A stretch of DNA of 64,000 bases from Escherichia coli (GTDB taxonomy: Bacteria > Pseudomonadota > Gammaproteobacteria > Enterobacterales > Enterobacteriaceae), in NCBI RefSeq assembly GCF_024700885.2, contig NZ_CP117016.1. One strand, given 5' to 3'. A model generated the notes under the pieces. It saw only the letters and a program-made list of their open reading frames with translations. It was not told the origin of the DNA and searched no databases. A program made the translations under genes and the position numbers. Each line of letters begins with the position of its first letter. The stretch's first letter is position 1. This document shows positions 4,575-52,401 of the stretch, piece after piece.

Positions 4575-7500
4575 ATGAGTAAATTCCTGGACCGGTTTCG
4601 CTACTTCAAACAGAAGGGTGAAACCTTTGCCGATGGGCATGGCCAGCTTCTCAATACCAACCGTGACTGGGAGGATGGATATCGCCAGCGTTGGCAGCAT
4701 GACAAAATCGTCCGCTCTACCCACGGGGTAAACTGCACCGGCTCCTGCAGCTGGAAAATCTACGTCAAAAACGGTCTGGTCACCTGGGAAACCCAGCAGA
4801 CTGACTATCCTCGTACCCGCCCGGACCTGCCAAACCATGAACCTCGCGGCTGCCCGCGCGGTGCCAGCTACTCCTGGTATCTTTACAGTGCCAACCGCCT
4901 GAAATACCCGATGATGCGCAAACGCCTGATGAAAATGTGGCGTGAAGCGAAGGCGCTGCATAGCGATCCGGTTGAGGCATGGGCTTCTATCATTGAAGAC
5001 GCCGATAAAGCGAAAAGCTTTAAGCAGGCGCGTGGACGCGGTGGTTTTGTTCGTTCTTCCTGGCAGGAAGTGAACGAACTGATCGCCGCATCTAACGTTT
5101 ACACCATCAAAAACTACGGCCCGGACCGTGTCGCTGGCTTCTCGCCAATTCCGGCAATGTCGATGGTTTCTTACGCGTCGGGTGCGCGTTATCTTTCGCT
5201 GCTTGGCGGTACTTGCTTAAGCTTCTACGACTGGTACTGCGATCTGCCTCCTGCGTCTCCGCAAACCTGGGGCGAGCAAACTGACGTACCGGAATCTGCT
5301 GACTGGTACAACTCCAGCTACATCATCGCCTGGGGGTCAAACGTGCCGCAGACGCGTACTCCGGATGCTCACTTCTTTACTGAAGTGCGTTACAAAGGCA
5401 CCAAAACTGTTGCCGTCACACCGGACTACGCTGAAATCGCCAAACTGTGCGATCTGTGGCTGGCACCGAAACAGGGCACCGACGCAGCAATGGCGCTGGC
5501 GATGGGCCACGTAATGCTGCGTGAATTCCACCTCGACAACCCAAGCCAGTATTTCACCGACTATGTGCGTCGCTACACCGACATGCCGATGCTGGTGATG
5601 CTGGAAGAACGCGACGGTTACTACGCTGCGGGTCGTATGCTGCGCGCTGCTGATCTGGTGGATGCGCTGGGCCAGGAAAACAATCCGGAATGGAAAACTG
5701 TCGCCTTTAATACCAACGGCGAAATGGTTGCGCCGAACGGTTCTATTGGCTTCCGCTGGGGCGAGAAGGGCAAATGGAATCTTGAACAGCGCGACGGCAA
5801 AACTGGCGAAGAAACCGAGCTGCAACTGAGCCTGCTGGGTAGCCAGGATGAGATCGCTGAGGTGGGCTTCCCGTACTTTGGTGGCGACGGCACGGAACAC
5901 TTCAACAAAGTGGAACTGGAAAACGTGCTGCTGCACAAGCTGCCGGTGAAACGCCTGCAACTGGCTGATGGCAGCACCGCCCTGGTGACCACCGTTTATG
6001 ATCTGACGCTGGCAAACTACGGTCTGGAACGTGGCCTGAACGACGTTAACTGTGCAACCAGCTATGACGATGTGAAAGCTTACACCCCTGCCTGGGCCGA
6101 GCAAATCACTGGCGTTTCTCGCAGCCAGATTATCCGTATTGCCCGTGAATTTGCCGACAATGCTGATAAAACGCACGGTCGTTCGATGATTATCGTCGGC
6201 GCGGGGCTGAACCACTGGTATCACCTCGATATGAACTATCGTGGTCTGATCAACATGCTGATTTTCTGCGGCTGTGTAGGTCAGAGCGGTGGTGGCTGGG
6301 CGCACTATGTAGGTCAGGAAAAACTGCGTCCGCAAACCGGCTGGCAGCCGCTGGCGTTTGCCCTTGACTGGCAGCGTCCGGCGCGTCACATGAACAGCAC
6401 CTCTTATTTCTATAATCACTCCAGCCAGTGGCGTTATGAAACCGTGACCGCAGAAGAGTTGTTGTCGCCGATGGCGGATAAATCCCGTTATACCGGACAT
6501 CTGATCGACTTTAACGTCCGTGCAGAACGTATGGGTTGGCTGCCGTCTGCGCCGCAGTTAGGCACTAACCCGCTGACTATCGCTCGCGAAGCGGAAAAAG
6601 CGGGCATGAATCCGGTGGATTACACCGTGAAATCTCTGAAAGAGGGTTCTATCCGTTTTGCGGCAGAACAACCAGAAAACGGTAAAAACCACCCGCGTAA
6701 CCTGTTCATCTGGCGTTCTAACCTGCTCGGTTCTTCCGGTAAAGGTCATGAGTTTATGCTCAAGTACCTGCTGGGGACGGAGCACGGTATCCAGGGTAAA
6801 GATCTGGGGCAGCAGGGCGGCGTGAAGCCGGAAGAAGTGGACTGGCAGGACAATGGTCTGGAAGGCAAGCTGGATCTGGTGGTGACGCTGGACTTCCGTC
6901 TGTCGAGCACCTGTCTCTATTCCGACATCATTTTGCCGACGGCGACCTGGTACGAAAAAGACGACATGAATACTTCGGATATGCATCCGTTTATTCACCC
7001 GCTGTCTGCGGCGGTCGATCCGGCCTGGAAAGCGAAAAGCGACTGGGAAATCTACAAAGCCATCGCGAAGAAATTCTCCGAAGTGTGCGTTGGTCATCTG
7101 GGTAAAGAAACTGACATCGTCACGCTGCCTATCCAGCACGACTCTGCCGCTGAACTGGCGCAGCCGCTGGATGTGAAAGACTGGAAAAAAGGCGAATGCG
7201 ACCTGATCCCAGGTAAAACTGCACCGCACATTATGGTCGTAGAGCGCGATTATCCGGCAACTTACGAACGCTTTACCTCTATCGGCCCGCTGATGGAGAA
7301 AATCGGTAACGGCGGTAAAGGGATTGCCTGGAACACCCAGAGTGAGATGGATCTGCTGCGTAAGCTCAACTACACCAAAGCGGAAGGTCCGGCAAAAGGT
7401 CAGCCGATGCTCAATACCGCAATTGATGCGGCAGAGATGATCCTGACGCTGGCACCGGAAACCAATGGTCAGGTAGCTGTAAAAGCCTGGGCTGCCCTGA

Positions 7501-11417: not shown

Positions 11418-12132
11418 GTGATGGTGGTGGGGGAAGGATTACTCAGCGCTGCGCGCTTCACCCTTCGGGTCGTTGCCTGCGGCAACGCTTTCTCGCTGGC
11501 GCTCGAGTCGCACCTTGGTCGAAGCTTCTCATCCTTCCCCGCATGGGCAGAATATTTAATTGCGGATTCGTTTGAGAGTTCACGGACTTTTGAAAAGTGA
11601 TGGTGGTGGGGGAAGGATTACTCAGCGCTGCGCGCTTCGCCCTTCGGGTCGTTGCCTGCGGCAACGCTCTCTCGCTGGCGCTCGAGTCGAACCTTGGTCG
11701 AAGCTTCTCATCCTTCCCCGCATGGGCAGAATATTTAATCGCGGATTCGTTTGAGAGTTCACGGACTTTTGAAAGTGATGGTGGTGGGGGAAGGATTACT
11801 CAGCGCTGCGCGCTTCGCCCTTCGGGTCGTTGCCTGCGGCCACGCTCTCTCGTTGGCGCTCGAGTCGAACCTTGGTCGAAGCTTCTCATCCTTCCCCCGC
11901 TTGGGCAGAATATTTAATTACGGATTCGTTTGAGAGTTCAGGGACTTTTGAAAGTGATGGTGGTGGGGGAAGGATTACTCAGCGCTGCGCGCTTCGCCCT
12001 TCGGGTCGTTGCCTGCGGCCACGCTCTCTCGCTGGCGCTCGAGTCGAACCTTGGTCGAAGCTTCTCATCCTTCCCCGCATGGGCAGAATATTTAATCGCG
12101 GATTCGTTTGAGAGTTCACGGACTTTTGAAAG
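11418..12132 (-). repeat. rtT: rtT tandem repeats downstream of tyrV (four ~178-179-bp units, each ending in the tRNA-Tyr 3' segment)
   Basis: Unit starts at 11418, 11597, 11775, 11954 (next unit is tyrV at 12133), plus a degenerate partial unit at ~11340-11417; an Arg-rich small ORF ([24 protein letters not shown], ~11458-11532, -) resembles the recalled protamine-like Tpr. Confidence 0.8.
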
Positions 12133-48263: not shown

Positions 48264-48278
48264 TTGCCGGAGGCGCTT

Positions 48279-48701
48279 ATGGCAAAAGTATTTACACAAG
48301 AAGAGCGGGAAAAAATTAAAGGGCAGGTTGTTGAACTTGTACGTCTGAGCGGTCGCGAGACGTTGCGGCAACTGGAAGCCAAGACAGGTGCGACAAGATA
48401 TCTGATGAGTGTTCTCGCCAGAGAGCTGGTTGCCAGTGGCGATGTATACAACTCTGTTTACGGGTTATTCCCGTCTGAACAGGCGCGTAAGGACTGGCAA
48501 AACGCCCGCAAAAAACTCTCAAGGGCAAATCTGAAGAAACCATCTGTGGTTGATCCTGACCTTATCTGGACATTACCCGACGGAGAAATACGCCGCTACG
48601 ACAGGCGTATGAACATAATCTGTCGCGAGTGCCGGAAGAGTGAAGTTATGCAGCGCATATTGTCGTTTTATCAGGGTGATGTTCGGTATTTATTGAAGTG
48701 A
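48279..48701 (+). CDS. hypothetical phage protein
   Basis: ORF 48264..48701; ATG at 48279 preceded by GGAGG; C-terminal CxxC (ICRECRK). Confidence 0.5.
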   Translation: MAKVFTQEEREKIKGQVVELVRLSGRETLRQLEAKTGATRYLMSVLARELVASGDVYNSVYGLFPSEQARKDWQNARKKLSRANLKKPSVVDPDLIWTLPDGEIRRYDRRMNIICRECRKSEVMQRILSFYQGDVRYLLK

Positions 48702-48868
48702 CGAGATTAAAGTGCATTAGTTCAGATGCAAATTGACATTTTGTGGCACAGGGTAGAGCTAGCGTGGTTGTCCGCTTTGTGCCAGAAGCGGACATAGCAG
48801 GTGCCAGATGCATTTGTTATTCTTCATTGAATTGAGCAGTATCCTTAACAGGAACTCTGAATACATAA

Positions 48869-49507
48869 ATGAAGATGAAAAACATGTCTGAAGTGTTGAC
48901 CCAAGAAAAGCTTATTTTTGTTGCCCAGAGACTAAATGCCCTCGCGCAGTCAGGCCTGACCTATTCAAAAGACGTCTTTGACAAGGAACGCTATGAAGCC
49001 TTGCGTGAAATTGCCGCTGGACTGCTGAGTTCGCAGTTTGATATTAGCCGCAATGATTTGTTTCATGTATCGGAAACGGGTTACGCGACGCCCAAAACAG
49101 ATGTGCGTGCGTTTATCCTGCGTAATAATCGTATTCTGATGGTGAAAGAGGCTGCAGATGGATTATGGAGTCTTCCTGGCGGATGGGCAGATGTTGGAGA
49201 TACACCTTCTGAAGCTGTGCGTCGAGAGGTCGAAGAAGAAACCGGATTAAAAGTCAGAGTGACTAAACTATTGGGAGTTTGGGATCGTAATCTTCACGGC
49301 CATCCGCCTTTACCCTGGCATGTTTACAAGCTGATTTTTCTCTGTGAAGAAGTAGGTGGCAGCCTGTCAATCAGCCATGAGTCACTCGATGCTGATTTTT
49401 TTGATGTCAACGACCTGCCTGAATTGTCGCTTTCAAGAATTGTGCCTGAGCAGATTGCTGTCAGCCTGAGAGTAGCGAAAGGTGATGAAAAAACATGGTT
49501 TGATTAA
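48869..49507 (+). CDS. NUDIX hydrolase with N-terminal extension
   Basis: 212-aa ORF with canonical Nudix box GGWADVGDTPSEAVRREVEEETGL (GX5EX7REUXEEXGU). Confidence 0.8.
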   Translation: MKMKNMSEVLTQEKLIFVAQRLNALAQSGLTYSKDVFDKERYEALREIAAGLLSSQFDISRNDLFHVSETGYATPKTDVRAFILRNNRILMVKEAADGLWSLPGGWADVGDTPSEAVRREVEEETGLKVRVTKLLGVWDRNLHGHPPLPWHVYKLIFLCEEVGGSLSISHESLDADFFDVNDLPELSLSRIVPEQIAVSLRVAKGDEKTWFD

Positions 49508-49530
49508 CTTTCTTCTGCAACCATTAAGGA

Positions 49531-50175
49531 ATGGCAATGATATTCAACGCTAAGGGTTTTTTATTCGATATGGACGGTACGCTGGTTGATTCAACAGCCG
49601 TAGTGGAAAGCGTCTGGAGAGATTTTTGTGCAGAATACGGTCTTGATACTCAGGCTGTGATTGCTTACGCACACGGGCGGCAAACGATTGATACACTGAC
49701 GCATTTTATTGGTGCAGGTGAGAAAACCAATAAAATCGCGGCCTCACTCGAAGAGGTTGAAATCAACACGACAGAAGGCGTTACTGAAGTAAAAGGGGCC
49801 GCTGCACTCTTATCAAAACTGCCACCGGATAGCTGGGCACTTGTTACTTCTGCAGGCAGAATGCTTGCCGAAAACAGGATGAAAGCGGCTAATCTCCCCT
49901 TACCCATAGTAATGGTGTGTGCAGAAGATGTAATGACGGGAAAACCAAGTCCCGAGGGTTACATCAAAGCAGCTTTGGCTTTGGGCCTTGAGCCTGGTGA
50001 ATGCGTGGTATTTGAGGATGCATCTGCGGGTATAAAAGCAGGGCTGGCAAGTGGAGCTTCGGTAATAGCTGTTCAGCCTGACGCTCTGGGATCATCTGAA
50101 GCCCATGCCGTCAGCGAGCTGTCTGACATTATGGTCAAGATTTCCGGAGAACGTTTCAATATCATCTGTGGTTAA
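49531..50175 (+). CDS. HAD-superfamily phosphatase
   Basis: 214-aa ORF with motif I FDMDGTLVDS and downstream HAD motifs; AAGGA Shine-Dalgarno. Confidence 0.8.
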   Translation: MAMIFNAKGFLFDMDGTLVDSTAVVESVWRDFCAEYGLDTQAVIAYAHGRQTIDTLTHFIGAGEKTNKIAASLEEVEINTTEGVTEVKGAAALLSKLPPDSWALVTSAGRMLAENRMKAANLPLPIVMVCAEDVMTGKPSPEGYIKAALALGLEPGECVVFEDASAGIKAGLASGASVIAVQPDALGSSEAHAVSELSDIMVKISGERFNIICG

Positions 50176-50438
50176 TCACGTTACACAATACGCATCAATG
50201 GACGCTGAGTAGTTCGCGAGTTTTAAACTTCCAACGTCCGCTTTTCGCTCAAAGCGGACTAGAAGGTTAGCTTGCGTCGGACTTGGCGTATTTAAAGAAG
50301 TGCTGGTGGTGACTGGTTGTTGTGTTCCATTTCTACAGAACAAAATCACAGAAACTATACCCAATAGTTGTATTGAATCACTGACGAGACAGCCTCATAT
50401 TTATCAGGACTGGTGTACGTCCAATACAGGAGGTTGTG

Positions 50439-50528
50439 GTGCTGGTTCTCAAATGTGCGCTGGCTATTGCTGCTGTAATGGCAATTTATTGCCTTGCTGT
50501 TGTTCTTATGGATCGCCTTTCTGATTGA
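50439..50528 (+). CDS. candidate small hydrophobic peptide (29 aa)
   Basis: AGGAGG (50428-50433) followed by GTG at 50439; MLVLKCALAIAAVMAIYCLAVVLMDRLSD; one predicted TM helix; not in the ORF track (below length cutoff). Confidence 0.25.
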   Translation: MLVLKCALAIAAVMAIYCLAVVLMDRLSD

Positions 50529-50739
50529 TTTCATATTGGCGAGGTGACGGGAGTTAAGTAGAATGGCTGCGGGTGCTTGAGGCTATCTGTCTCAGGCATG
50601 AACACCAAAGGCAGATAGAGAAAAGCCCCAGTTAACATTACGCGTCCTGCAAGACGCTTAACATTAATCTGAGGCCATATCTATGCTCTACACACGTAGG
50701 TTAGCCTCTTACGTGCCGAAAGGCAAGGAGAAGCAGGCT

Positions 50740-50895
50740 ATGAAGCAGCAAAAGGCGATGCTAATCGCCCTGATCGTCATCTGTTTAACCGTCATGGTGA
50801 CGGCACTGGTAACGAGGAAAGACCTCTGCGAGGTACGAATCCGAACCGGCCAGACGGAGGTCGCTGTCTTCACAGCTTACGAACCTGAGGAGTAA
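50740..50895 (+). CDS. hok: Hok/Gef-family type I toxin
   Basis: MKQQKAMLIALIVICLTVMVTALVTRKDLCEVRIRTGQTEVAVFTAYEPEE (51 aa) with AAGGAG Shine-Dalgarno; the in-frame upstream extension from 50683 may be a mok-like leader frame. Confidence 0.85.
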   Translation: MKQQKAMLIALIVICLTVMVTALVTRKDLCEVRIRTGQTEVAVFTAYEPEE

Positions 50896-51342: not shown

Positions 51343-52401
51343 GTGCGGGTATTACTTCGACCTGTTCTGGTACCGGAACTCGGTCTGGTTATCGTTAAGC
51401 CAGGCCGTGAATCAATGTCAGCATTCCATAACGGCAGAATACTGGTGGAGCCGGAACCAAAAAGCATGCGTAATCTGCCGTCCGGGGTCGTTCCTGCCGC
51501 TCGCCAGCCGCTGGTGGAAGACAAAACATTGCTGCCGTTTTTCAGTAACGCACGGGTGATTCGTGCTGCTGGTGGTGCTGGTGCATTGTCTGACTGGCTG
51601 TTGCGCCATATTAAATCCTGCCAGTGGCCACACGGCGATTATCATCACAGCGAAACCGTCATTCACCGTTATGGTACCGGCGCAATGGTGTTGTGCTGGC
51701 ACTGCGACAACCAGCTGCGTGACCAGACATCCGAATCACTCGGGCAACTTGCTCATCAAAACCTGTCAGCATGGATGATTGACGTCATCGGTCACGCAAT
51801 AAGCGGTACGCAGGAGCGTGAATTATCTCTGGCTGAATTATCCTGGTGGGCGGTCCGCAATCAGGTGGCGGACGCGCTACCGGAAGCGGTATTACGTCGT
51901 TCGCTGGGGTTGCGTGCGGAAAAAATTCGCTCTGTGTACAGTGAAAGCGACATCATACCGGGAGAGCAGACCGCCACCAGCATACTGAAGCAGCGCACAA
52001 AAAATATTGCGTTACTGCCTCACGTCCACCAGCAACAGAACCCACCACAGGAAAAGACGGTGGTCAGCATTGCCGTTGATCCGGAGTCACCGGCTCAGTA
52101 TCTCCAGCGCCAGAAATCACAACGGGAAGAGATGCCTGTATACACGCGCTGGGTAAAAACGCAGAAATGCATGACGTGTGGCAATCAGGCAGATGATCCG
52201 CATCACATCATTGGTCATGGACTGGGAGGGATGGGAACAAAGGCTGATGATTTGTTTGTTATTCCGTTATGCCGTAAATGCCGTAACGAACTACATGCCG
52301 GAGTAAAAGATTTTGAAGAGAAACACGGCAGTCAGCTGTTGTTGCTGATTCGTTTTTTAATGCACGCGAGAAATTCGGGTGTTCTGAAGTGGAAAGCATA
52401 A
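51343..52401 (+). CDS. DUF968-family protein (YdfU-like) with C-terminal HNH-like Cys/His motif
   Basis: 352-aa ORF, GTG start with GGAGG; C-terminus KCMTCGNQADDPHHIIGHG...CRKCRNELH. Confidence 0.6.
   Translation: MRVLLRPVLVPELGLVIVKPGRESMSAFHNGRILVEPEPKSMRNLPSGVVPAARQPLVEDKTLLPFFSNARVIRAAGGAGALSDWLLRHIKSCQWPHGDYHHSETVIHRYGTGAMVLCWHCDNQLRDQTSESLGQLAHQNLSAWMIDVIGHAISGTQERELSLAELSWWAVRNQVADALPEAVLRRSLGLRAEKIRSVYSESDIIPGEQTATSILKQRTKNIALLPHVHQQQNPPQEKTVVSIAVDPESPAQYLQRQKSQREEMPVYTRWVKTQKCMTCGNQADDPHHIIGHGLGGMGTKADDLFVIPLCRKCRNELHAGVKDFEEKHGSQLLLLIRFLMHARNSGVLKWKA

Follow-up and report, generated by a model that had tools for sequence, protein, structure and literature searches.

A two-gene operon encoding a Nudix hydrolase and a HAD-type phosphatase, located in a lambdoid prophage of Escherichia coli (assembly GCF_024700885.2, contig NZ_CP117016.1), forms together with the 24-nucleotide (nt) palindrome on either side of it, here designated L and R, a discrete exchangeable module at positions 48770-50259 of the 64,000-nt stretch of DNA that was analysed (the window). 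This conclusion is strongly supported by the occurrence of the same segment in unrelated backbones. A megablast comparison of window positions 48600-50400 with phage genomes showed that the P2-like phages P24C9 and 10W match the query at positions 171-1661 only, which correspond to window positions 48770-50260, from the first base of L through the last base of R, with 99.3% identity. In both phages the segment lies between the tail-fibre assembly gene G and the sheath gene FI, which is the Z/fun position of P2, and the segment in the window occupies the slot between DUF977 and hokD in a lambdoid prophage, not the G-FI interval of a P2-like phage. The module has passed intact between unrelated backbones, and the points of exchange lie inside L and R. 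The features concerned are as follows:

48770-48793: L repeat, a 24-nt palindrome with arms of 8-9 base pairs (bp) and the loop TGTGCCAG; left boundary of the module
50236-50259: R repeat, a 24-nt palindrome with the loop TTCGCTCA; right boundary of the module
48757-48802: left arm of a longer imperfect inverted repeat (46 nt, 74% complementary), which includes L
50227-50272: right arm of the longer imperfect inverted repeat, which includes R
48794-48868, plus strand: leader separating L from the Nudix start, within the segment kept at 90% nt identity in locus L220 (see below)
48869-49507, plus strand: Nudix_N and NUDIX hydrolase gene, 212 amino acids (aa), from the list of open reading frames (ORFs)
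49531-50175, plus strand: HAD-IA phosphatase gene, 214 aa, from the ORF list
48264-48701, plus strand: DUF977 gene, left backbone flank of the lambdoid cargo slot, outside the cassette
50571-50895, plus strand: sok RNA and hokD, right backbone flank of the slot, outside the cassette

Cassette boundaries and backbones

Of 5426 complete E. coli genomes, 21 contain the interior of the cassette, with an identity of at least 99.4% in each case, and at least five unrelated flanking contexts were found, with an overall identity of 99.3-100%:

Lambdoid DUF977-hokD slot: 18 genomes
P2-like Z/fun slot: phages P24C9 and 10W
Cryptic prophage remnant adjoining paoD: locus L127
Integrase-bearing island, with a truncated HAD gene: locus L128
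One further viral contig: locus L091

In all of these contexts, the switch from one flank to another coincides exactly with the outer edge of each repeat. Other lambdoid prophages with the same flanks contain different cargos, and the divergence in the three prophages compared sets in precisely at the inner edge of each repeat; for example, the slot holds a minus-strand ORF of 269 aa in K_EC180 and a regulator with an acetyltransferase in phage Evi. A first-pass annotation, made from the sequence alone, had proposed a discrete inserted cassette ending at two hairpins, and the recurrence of the L-to-R segment in these contexts bears this out. Its supposition that the hairpins are particular to this cassette did not hold, as L and R also bracket many other cargos in the lambdoid slot, the P2 Z/fun slot, and plasmids. 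Decayed copies were also seen, namely S1-CAM-02-A (locus L129), where an IS3 insertion has removed the Nudix gene, B4103-1 (locus L128), in which the HAD gene is truncated, and the record of phage 11W (locus L005), a degenerate copy with ambiguous bases.

Both repeats, L (GTCCGCTTTGTGCCAGAAGCGGAC) and R (GTCCGCTTTTCGCTCAAAGCGGAC), consist of two 8-9 bp arms around an asymmetric centre, and 21 of the 24 positions of R agree with the reverse complement of L, so that the repeats on the two sides of the cargo are inverted relative to each other. The pattern GTCCGC-N4-20-GCGGAC occurs three times in the window against an expectation of 0.04, and none of 100 shuffles reached this number. Folding as single-stranded DNA gives -9.5 kcal/mol for L (z -4.9) and -8.9 kcal/mol for R (z -3.7), and the hairpins with a shared GTCCGC/GCGGAC core that had been described on both sides of the gene pair are found at exactly these two positions. 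The bases after L (ATAGCAGG) and after R (TAGAAGGT) do not form a T tract in either case. Ordinary intrinsic terminators, which the first-pass annotation had itself named as the explanation that would undo its cassette, were rejected, as L and R are without a T tract and were not called by the terminator scan; the occurrence of the hairpins around other cargos comes near to that refuting condition, but they are boundaries of modules. No family covering L or R was returned by the Rfam scan, in which the only genuine RNA family nearby was sok at 50571-50745 (RF01794, 114.7 bits).

The stems of the hairpins show few compensatory changes and the loops are conserved as much as the stems, which fits recognition of the sequence better than a purely structural role. 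The loci were collected by a pattern scan that accepted a locus only if at least one of its hairpins had perfect arms, which biases the hairpin statistics, and stem covariation was set aside as evidence of a structural role because of this biased locus set and the small number of compensatory changes. The third GTCCGC...GCGGAC palindrome of the window (GTCCGCAATCAGGTGGCGGAC) lies at 51853-51873 within a DUF968 ORF and is kept in related prophages (loci L002-L004); its loop is unlike those of L and R, and the palindrome is probably unrelated to the cassette boundaries.

Exchange at the repeats and the wider repeat family

Crossovers were mapped by comparing the same cargo across backbones as well as different cargos within one backbone. 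Positions 1-9 of L go with the backbone and positions 16-24 with the cargo; in R, positions 1-15 (5' arm and loop) go with the cargo and positions 16-24 (3' arm) with the backbone. The R repeat of the Nudix cassette always starts with GTCCGCTTTTCGCTC, whatever the backbone, and ends with AAAGCGGAC in lambdoid backbones, CAAGCAGAC in P2-like backbones, ATAACAGAC in the paoD-adjoining remnant (locus L127), ATAGCAGAC in the island (locus L128), and ACAGCGGAG in the further viral contig (locus L091). Similarly, CAAAGCGGAC is kept by all lambdoid backbones irrespective of the cargo. This arm-by-arm segregation places the crossovers within the 24-mers themselves, on the border of the central 8 nt.

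The first-pass annotation had raised the possibility of a hairpin-to-hairpin deletion in related prophages that lack the gene pair. No such deletion was found, and the slot in these prophages holds other cargos. Among 3261 genomes with a match to the flanks there was no empty lambdoid slot, and the flanks were less than 750 nt apart in only one, strain A20 (locus L227, 351-620), which retains L and half of R around a non-coding remnant of 225 nt, a decayed cargo. A slot that is practically never empty fits replacement by double crossover better than insertion and excision. A double crossover at L and R would exchange the cargo, with the outer arm of each repeat staying with the backbone and the inner arm travelling with the cargo, and it might proceed by short-homology recombination or by a site-specific recombinase acting on arm-centre-arm sites.

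The repeats are already partly known from P2-like phages, and the module is a new cargo of a repeat-flanked hotspot. P2 itself has decayed copies of L and R on either side of fun(Z), and GenBank records from 2004 (AJ512676-AJ512685) contain the "Z-region" sequences of P2-EC30 to P2-EC67, with different ORFs between annotated inverted repeats, in which the "left inverted repeat" ends exactly at L (P2-EC58, AJ512683) and the "right inverted repeat" starts exactly at R (also in P2-EC58). The P2-like Yersinia phage P37 (locus L132, 470-610) is without the Z/fun region, L, and R, and directly after its G stop codon come the terminator and the promoter of FI; in P2-like phages, the inverted-repeat structure as a whole is thus itself an insertion. 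Site-specific recombination, with links to other enterobacterial genomes, was reportedly proposed by Nilsson, Karlsson, and Haggard-Ljungquist in 2004 (Mol Biol Evol 21:1), the paper to which these GenBank records belong, as its title suggests. The hotspots of P2 are documented reservoirs of defence systems (PMC9122126; bioRxiv 10.1101/2024.10.15.618418), and swapping at P2/P4 hotspots is rapid and without pseudogenisation, by a mechanism that is still to be elucidated (bioRxiv 10.64898/2026.02.27.708500). Hairpins, inverted repeats, and Nudix genes at these hotspots are not mentioned in Rousset 2022, the iLund4u 2024 preprint, or the de Sousa 2026 preprint.

At least 20 other cargos bracketed by L/R pairs were identified when viral contigs were scanned and the matches processed with scripts. 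PADLOC matches among them include a type III-A retron (RT_III-A), NsnA/PD-T4-2, PDC-M38A (AbiL/PARIS-like), PDC-S49, PDC-S39, and a ThsA-like SIR2 protein with an adenosine-deaminase-like protein. In the same lambdoid slot as that of the window, two loci (L070, 1793-5305, and L092) contain a four-gene cargo encoding an adenosine-deaminase-like protein (CARF_ADA match), a 184-aa HAM1/ITPase-like protein, a ThsA-like SIR2 protein, and a TetR-like regulator; this cargo, which is not a complete known PADLOC system, is a candidate for nucleotide-targeting defence.

Cargos can also be arranged in tandem, where L-cargo-R is followed by a 16-18 nt spacer (consensus CTTYAGCTCAGTTACCT) and another L-cargo-R; such arrays were found in a plasmid of Pantoea ananatis as well as in viral contigs (loci L020, 2245-5310; L073, 3775-8168; L114, 1361-4433; and L226, 6962-13410). 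The array of the Pantoea plasmid (locus L226) contains a VOC and GNAT cassette in duplicate, and an IS110-family transposase gene (5937-6962 of the same locus) ends 51 nt before the first L. Relatives of IS110 target palindromic repeats, and this position may not be a coincidence. The R-spacer-L doublet occurs in 2341 plasmids, including 1233 of Klebsiella, 415 of Enterobacter, 176 of Escherichia, and 151 of Pantoea, among others. These plasmids are predicted to be conjugative in 1515 cases, and the doublets lie between metabolic or detoxification operons, with a maximum of 17 places in one Pantoea megaplasmid. In E. coli, 1594 of the 5426 genomes have the doublet, with a median of one place. 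On folding, the doublet at 11996-12071 of locus L226 (NZ_CP020945.2) forms one long, imperfect hairpin (-21.6 kcal/mol, z -6.8).

Two readings of the repeats have to be weighed. In the first, which is a serious contender although we hold it at a little under an even chance, the hairpins are irrelevant to mobility and are elements of transcription or mRNA stability (REP/BIME-like), and the breakpoints fall in them as the only conserved sequence available for homologous recombination. The wide intergenic distribution of the repeats in plasmids, with up to 17 places in a Pantoea megaplasmid, and the folding of R-spacer-L doublets into one long REPIN-like hairpin are consistent with this, and an identity of about 24 nt is close to the minimum for Red/RecET-type recombination. 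In addition, no recombinase has so far been tied to L or R, in loci for which no survey of genes co-occurring with the repeats was made. The same reading is opposed by the two hairpins being without a T tract and uncalled by the terminator scan, by the conserved loops and rare compensatory changes, which favour recognition of the sequence, and by the crossovers, which in L as well as in R fall at the same place on the border of the central 8 nt. In the second reading, which we regard as doubtful, L and R would be heterospecific inverted arm-centre-arm sites, with 8-9 bp arms and an asymmetric 8-bp centre, for recombinase- or hairpin-directed cassette exchange, and the Nudix-HAD pair would then be a selected, immunity-related cargo.

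The value of the module, one more uncharacterised cargo of the accessory-gene hotspots of phages, is that of a clean tracer: the same 1.49-kb segment, at 99.3-100% identity in P2-like phages, lambdoid phages, and chromosomal islands, narrows the points of exchange to two repeats of 24 nt. If L and R are recombination sites, they would explain how defence systems move between unrelated mobile elements and would provide a concrete mechanism for the swapping at P2/P4 hotspots without pseudogenisation (bioRxiv 10.64898/2026.02.27.708500). They would then also be a shared docking standard for defence, counter-defence, and metabolic cargo across P2-like phages, lambdoid prophages, islands, and plasmids, and a sequence tag by which cargo slots and new defence or anti-defence genes could be located in Enterobacterales phages and plasmids. 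The breadth of the L/R family and the mapped crossovers make the mechanism of cargo swapping experimentally testable.

The two enzymes and their candidate roles

The window contains a lambdoid prophage, in which the gene pair is placed after genes of the replication region (DUF1627 and DUF977) and before hokD/sok, a type I toxin-antitoxin locus directly to the right of the slot. Positions 48600-50400 are 100% identical to the RefSeq genome of strain MLI114, where the prophage adjoins ompW and the gene order is cI/cro-type switch, replication genes, DUF1627, DUF977, NUDIX hydrolase, HAD hydrolase, hokD, DUF968, RusA, and Q; hokD is annotated in this identical genome. The same gene pair is annotated there by RefSeq, with the HAD start at window position 49537 (212 aa), which is preceded by an AAGGA ribosome-binding site. 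The Nudix start is probably the ATG at 48884 (207 aa) because the homologues are 207 aa in length. The distance from the end of L to the ATG at 48869 is 75 nt, and that from the HAD stop codon to the start of R is 60 nt. In the lambdoid and the P2-like backbone alike, the pair points in the direction of lytic transcription. The first-pass description of a same-strand Nudix and HAD pair with intact catalytic motifs between the replication genes and hok agrees with the ORFs, the Pfam matches, and the motif check. A cysteine-rich ORF of 74 aa (..CGAGSQMCAGYCCCNGNLLPCCCSYGSPF) at 50300-50524, which lies to the right of R and ahead of sok in the conserved flank, is without RefSeq annotation in the identical genome and may be spurious.

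The Nudix protein belongs, by its motifs, to the CDP-Chase/UDP-Xase subfamily. It has the Pfam domains Nudix_N (E 1.6e-17) and NUDIX (E 1.1e-18), and its closest solved structures are those of Bacillus cereus CDP-Chase (3Q1P/6NCI, E 9e-50, 44.6% identity), together with 3O8S and 4HFQ (E 2e-37). The Nudix box reads G-WADVG-D-TPSEAVR-REVEEETGL, in which a D replaces the first E so that the strict regular expression fails, and the catalytic REVEEE is intact. All of the subfamily motifs (PMC3655063) are present with one K-to-R change, including the N-terminal HLH motif GLTYSKDVFDKERY at residues 29-42, the hinge motif YATP at 72-75, and LPELS at 183-187, and the subfamily Nudix signature GWADVGDTPSEAVRREVEEETGL matches only if K may be R; the length of 207 or 212 aa compares with 200-210 aa in the subfamily. 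The subfamily is further characterised by an asymmetric homodimer and by a 3'-5' RNA exonuclease activity in addition to NDP-X pyrophosphatase activity (PMC3655063). Among characterised members, the UDP-Xase of Streptococcus pneumoniae hydrolyses UDP-MurNAc precursors (PMC3655063), and B. cereus CDP-Chase also hydrolyses ADP-ribose as a secondary substrate (PMC6384729). PADLOC (PADLOC-DB v2) returned for this protein only the generic PDC-S07 (36.6 bits), which covers the Nudix domain alone, and PHROGs has families for both the Nudix and the HAD protein, neither of which has a known role.

The HAD protein is, from its sequence, a YfbT-like sugar- or polyol-phosphate phosphatase of type HAD-IA. 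It matches the Pfam family HAD_2 (E 6e-22), and the HAD motifs I-IV are intact (DMDGT, ALVTS, GKPSP, and FEDASAG). Its best NCBIfam match is the YfbT-type "sugar phosphatase" NF008610 (E 6e-56), for which the score of 189.3 bits lies under the equivalog cut-off of 282 and marks it as a paralogue of YfbT and not an equivalog. Its closest solved structure is that of the yeast glycerol-3-phosphatase Gpp1 (PDB 2QLT, E 2e-22), and no PADLOC match was obtained. A housekeeping origin of the HAD gene was considered and rejected on the basis of an exact 8-residue pattern scan, which is not exhaustive: it found no close relative in 100,044 species-representative genomes and nothing above 52% identity, and no Nudix gene stood beside these distant homologues (at most 52% identity). 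Relatives of more than 80% identity were seen only beside the Nudix gene, on short metagenomic contigs.

The pair retains the same spacing of 26-29 nt in copies that have diverged to 80% (Nudix) and 71% (HAD) identity, and the HAD gene is solitary below about 70% identity. The diverged pairs are:

Locus L220: HAD 90% identity
Locus L221: HAD 84% identity, with a GGACT (gamma-glutamylcyclotransferase-like) gene upstream
Locus L136: HAD 71% and Nudix 80% identity, adjoining integrases

Locus L220 is 90% identical at the nt level to window positions 48770-50259 from hairpin to hairpin, locus L221 has the order L, GGACT, Nudix, HAD, R, L, and in locus L134 the Nudix gene is the only one bracketed by L and R, with a second cassette after it. 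These three loci indicate that the association of this cargo with L and R is old, and the DNA that carries them resembles that of plasmids or islands with metabolic neighbours, not that of phages. The GGACT gene stands directly upstream of the Nudix gene in locus L221 (3875-5756) and in locus L133 (3340-4607, a plasmid of Pantoea sp. At-9b), which hints at a three-gene ancestral GGACT-Nudix-HAD unit. No paper on this Nudix-HAD pair was found.

On balance, we consider it probable that the segment is an exchangeable module bounded by L and R whose cargo consists of a nucleoside-diphosphate-X (NDP-X) pyrophosphatase of the Nudix family and a YfbT-like phosphatase. The family assignments make a two-step breakdown of an NDP-linked metabolite plausible, in which the Nudix enzyme would split a nucleoside-diphosphate-linked alcohol or sugar into a nucleoside monophosphate and X-phosphate, and the HAD enzyme would then dephosphorylate X-phosphate, by which the breakdown would become irreversible. 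Pyrimidine-nucleotide-linked envelope precursors or ADP-ribose-type compounds are the most likely substrates predicted from these relationships. Should an envelope precursor or an immune nucleotide prove to be the substrate, the pair would amount to a small module, selected on phages, that destroys a metabolite in two steps.

Several observations weigh against this explanation. Besides the scan-biased hairpin statistics and the missing recombinase described above, no consensus sigma-70 promoter was detected, at consensus stringency, in the leader between L and the Nudix gene or elsewhere in the cassette, and the HAD protein falls short of the NF008610 cut-off. The substrate specificity of Nudix and HAD-IA enzymes is poorly predictable from sequence. 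In Cedecea, Leclercia, Pantoea, and relatives, Nudix orthologues of about 70% identity stand as single genes on the chromosome, and together with the lone Nudix gene between L and R in locus L134 they imply that the HAD step is not obligatory. The earlier proposal that the two enzymes are linked for a two-step breakdown therefore stands in part: the conserved pairing, with its spacing kept in diverged copies, supports a coupling of the two enzymes, but the Nudix gene also occurs alone. The first-pass annotation had also named, as grounds for refutation, a conserved housekeeping-like operon found outside prophages with identical flanks; the diverged pair and the lone Nudix gene do stand among metabolic genes outside recognisable prophages, but their flanks are not identical.

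The possible roles of the pair rank in the order house-cleaning, defence or lysogenic conversion, and counter-defence. We tentatively place first an accessory house-cleaning or metabolite-hydrolysing pair that would benefit the lysogen (a metabolic moron), without giving it an even chance. An anti-phage defence or lysogenic conversion, in which the pair would deplete an NDP-sugar or NDP-alcohol needed by phages or their receptors or would degrade a phage nucleotide, is rather unlikely. In favour of defence, the slots otherwise hold cargos that count as known or candidate defence systems, Fun(Z) in the Z/fun slot of P2 is annotated in the P2 record as blocking T5, P2 hotspots are documented as defence reservoirs (PMC9122126; bioRxiv 10.1101/2024.10.15.618418), and near-identical copies are spread across at least five backbones of mobile elements. 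Against defence stand the PADLOC results, with only PDC-S07 (36.6 bits) for the Nudix protein and nothing for the HAD protein, the lack of a sensor/effector architecture, the absence of a detected promoter of its own in a pair co-oriented with lytic transcription in both phage backbones, and the plain metabolic operons that L and R carry in plasmids, which weaken location as evidence by association. The defence-rich slots of phages argue for a function in immunity, whereas the metabolic-rich arrays of plasmids argue for a general accessory pool.

Counter-defence during lytic growth, which the first-pass annotation had put forward as a two-step destruction of ADP-ribose- or NAD-derived immune signals or their precursors, appears improbable. 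In the lambdoid prophage the pair is oriented in the direction of early-right transcription, and in P24C9, where it follows gene G and precedes a downstream terminator, its expression by lytic read-through is plausible. The hydrolysis of ADP-ribose by CDP-Chase is secondary (PMC6384729), and nothing else speaks specifically for the NAD/ADP-ribose idea; CDP-choline and UDP-MurNAc derivatives are the preferred substrates of the closest characterised relatives (PMC3655063), the diverged pair and the lone Nudix gene lie among metabolic genes outside recognisable phages, and neither protein is similar to a known anti-defence protein.

Comparison with known systems

The Nudix protein agrees with CDP-Chase (3Q1P/6NCI) and UDP-X diphosphatase in domain architecture, length, and the motifs HLH, YXTP, and LPXLS, and differs from them by an R for K in the Nudix signature. 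The HAD protein has the HAD-IA fold and motifs I-IV in common with YfbT-type phosphatases and Gpp1 (2QLT).

The closest parallel to the module as a whole is the inverted-repeat region of P2 Z/fun, as in both cases the cargo lies directly between L- and R-type repeats and the homology breaks there. The repeats of the window differ in being located in a lambdoid prophage (DUF977-hok) with other outer flanks, and the L/R family includes tandem arrays and plasmid copies in addition to the P2 arrangement. The likeness to integron cassettes consists of promoter-poor tandem cargo units, imperfect palindromes of about 66 nt that fold as one hairpin, and defence cargo. The L/R repeats, however, are without the GTTRRRY/RYYYAAC core of attC, exchange occurs in both flanking repeats and not at one site per cassette, single cassettes have half-doublets, and slots are replaced and not emptied. 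No intI was found beside the loci inspected, and none of the annotated genes of the 26-kb prophage region is an integron integrase; an attC reading was rejected because the cores are absent, both flanks exchange, and the slots are never empty.

Similarly, L and R resemble REP/REPIN elements as short intergenic palindromes that form inverted doublets with the shape of a long hairpin and reach multiple copies in some replicons, whereas they occur on plasmids and phages and not chromosome-wide, with a median of one place per positive E. coli genome and 17 in a Pantoea megaplasmid. To our knowledge, L and R do not resemble the binding sites of XerC/XerD. An analogy, and only that, can be drawn with the pdif modules of Acinetobacter plasmids and with engineered recombinase-mediated cassette exchange, which use inverted arm-centre-arm sites with different centres; modules of the pdif type swap between replicons without a mobility gene of their own, as does the cargo between L and R.

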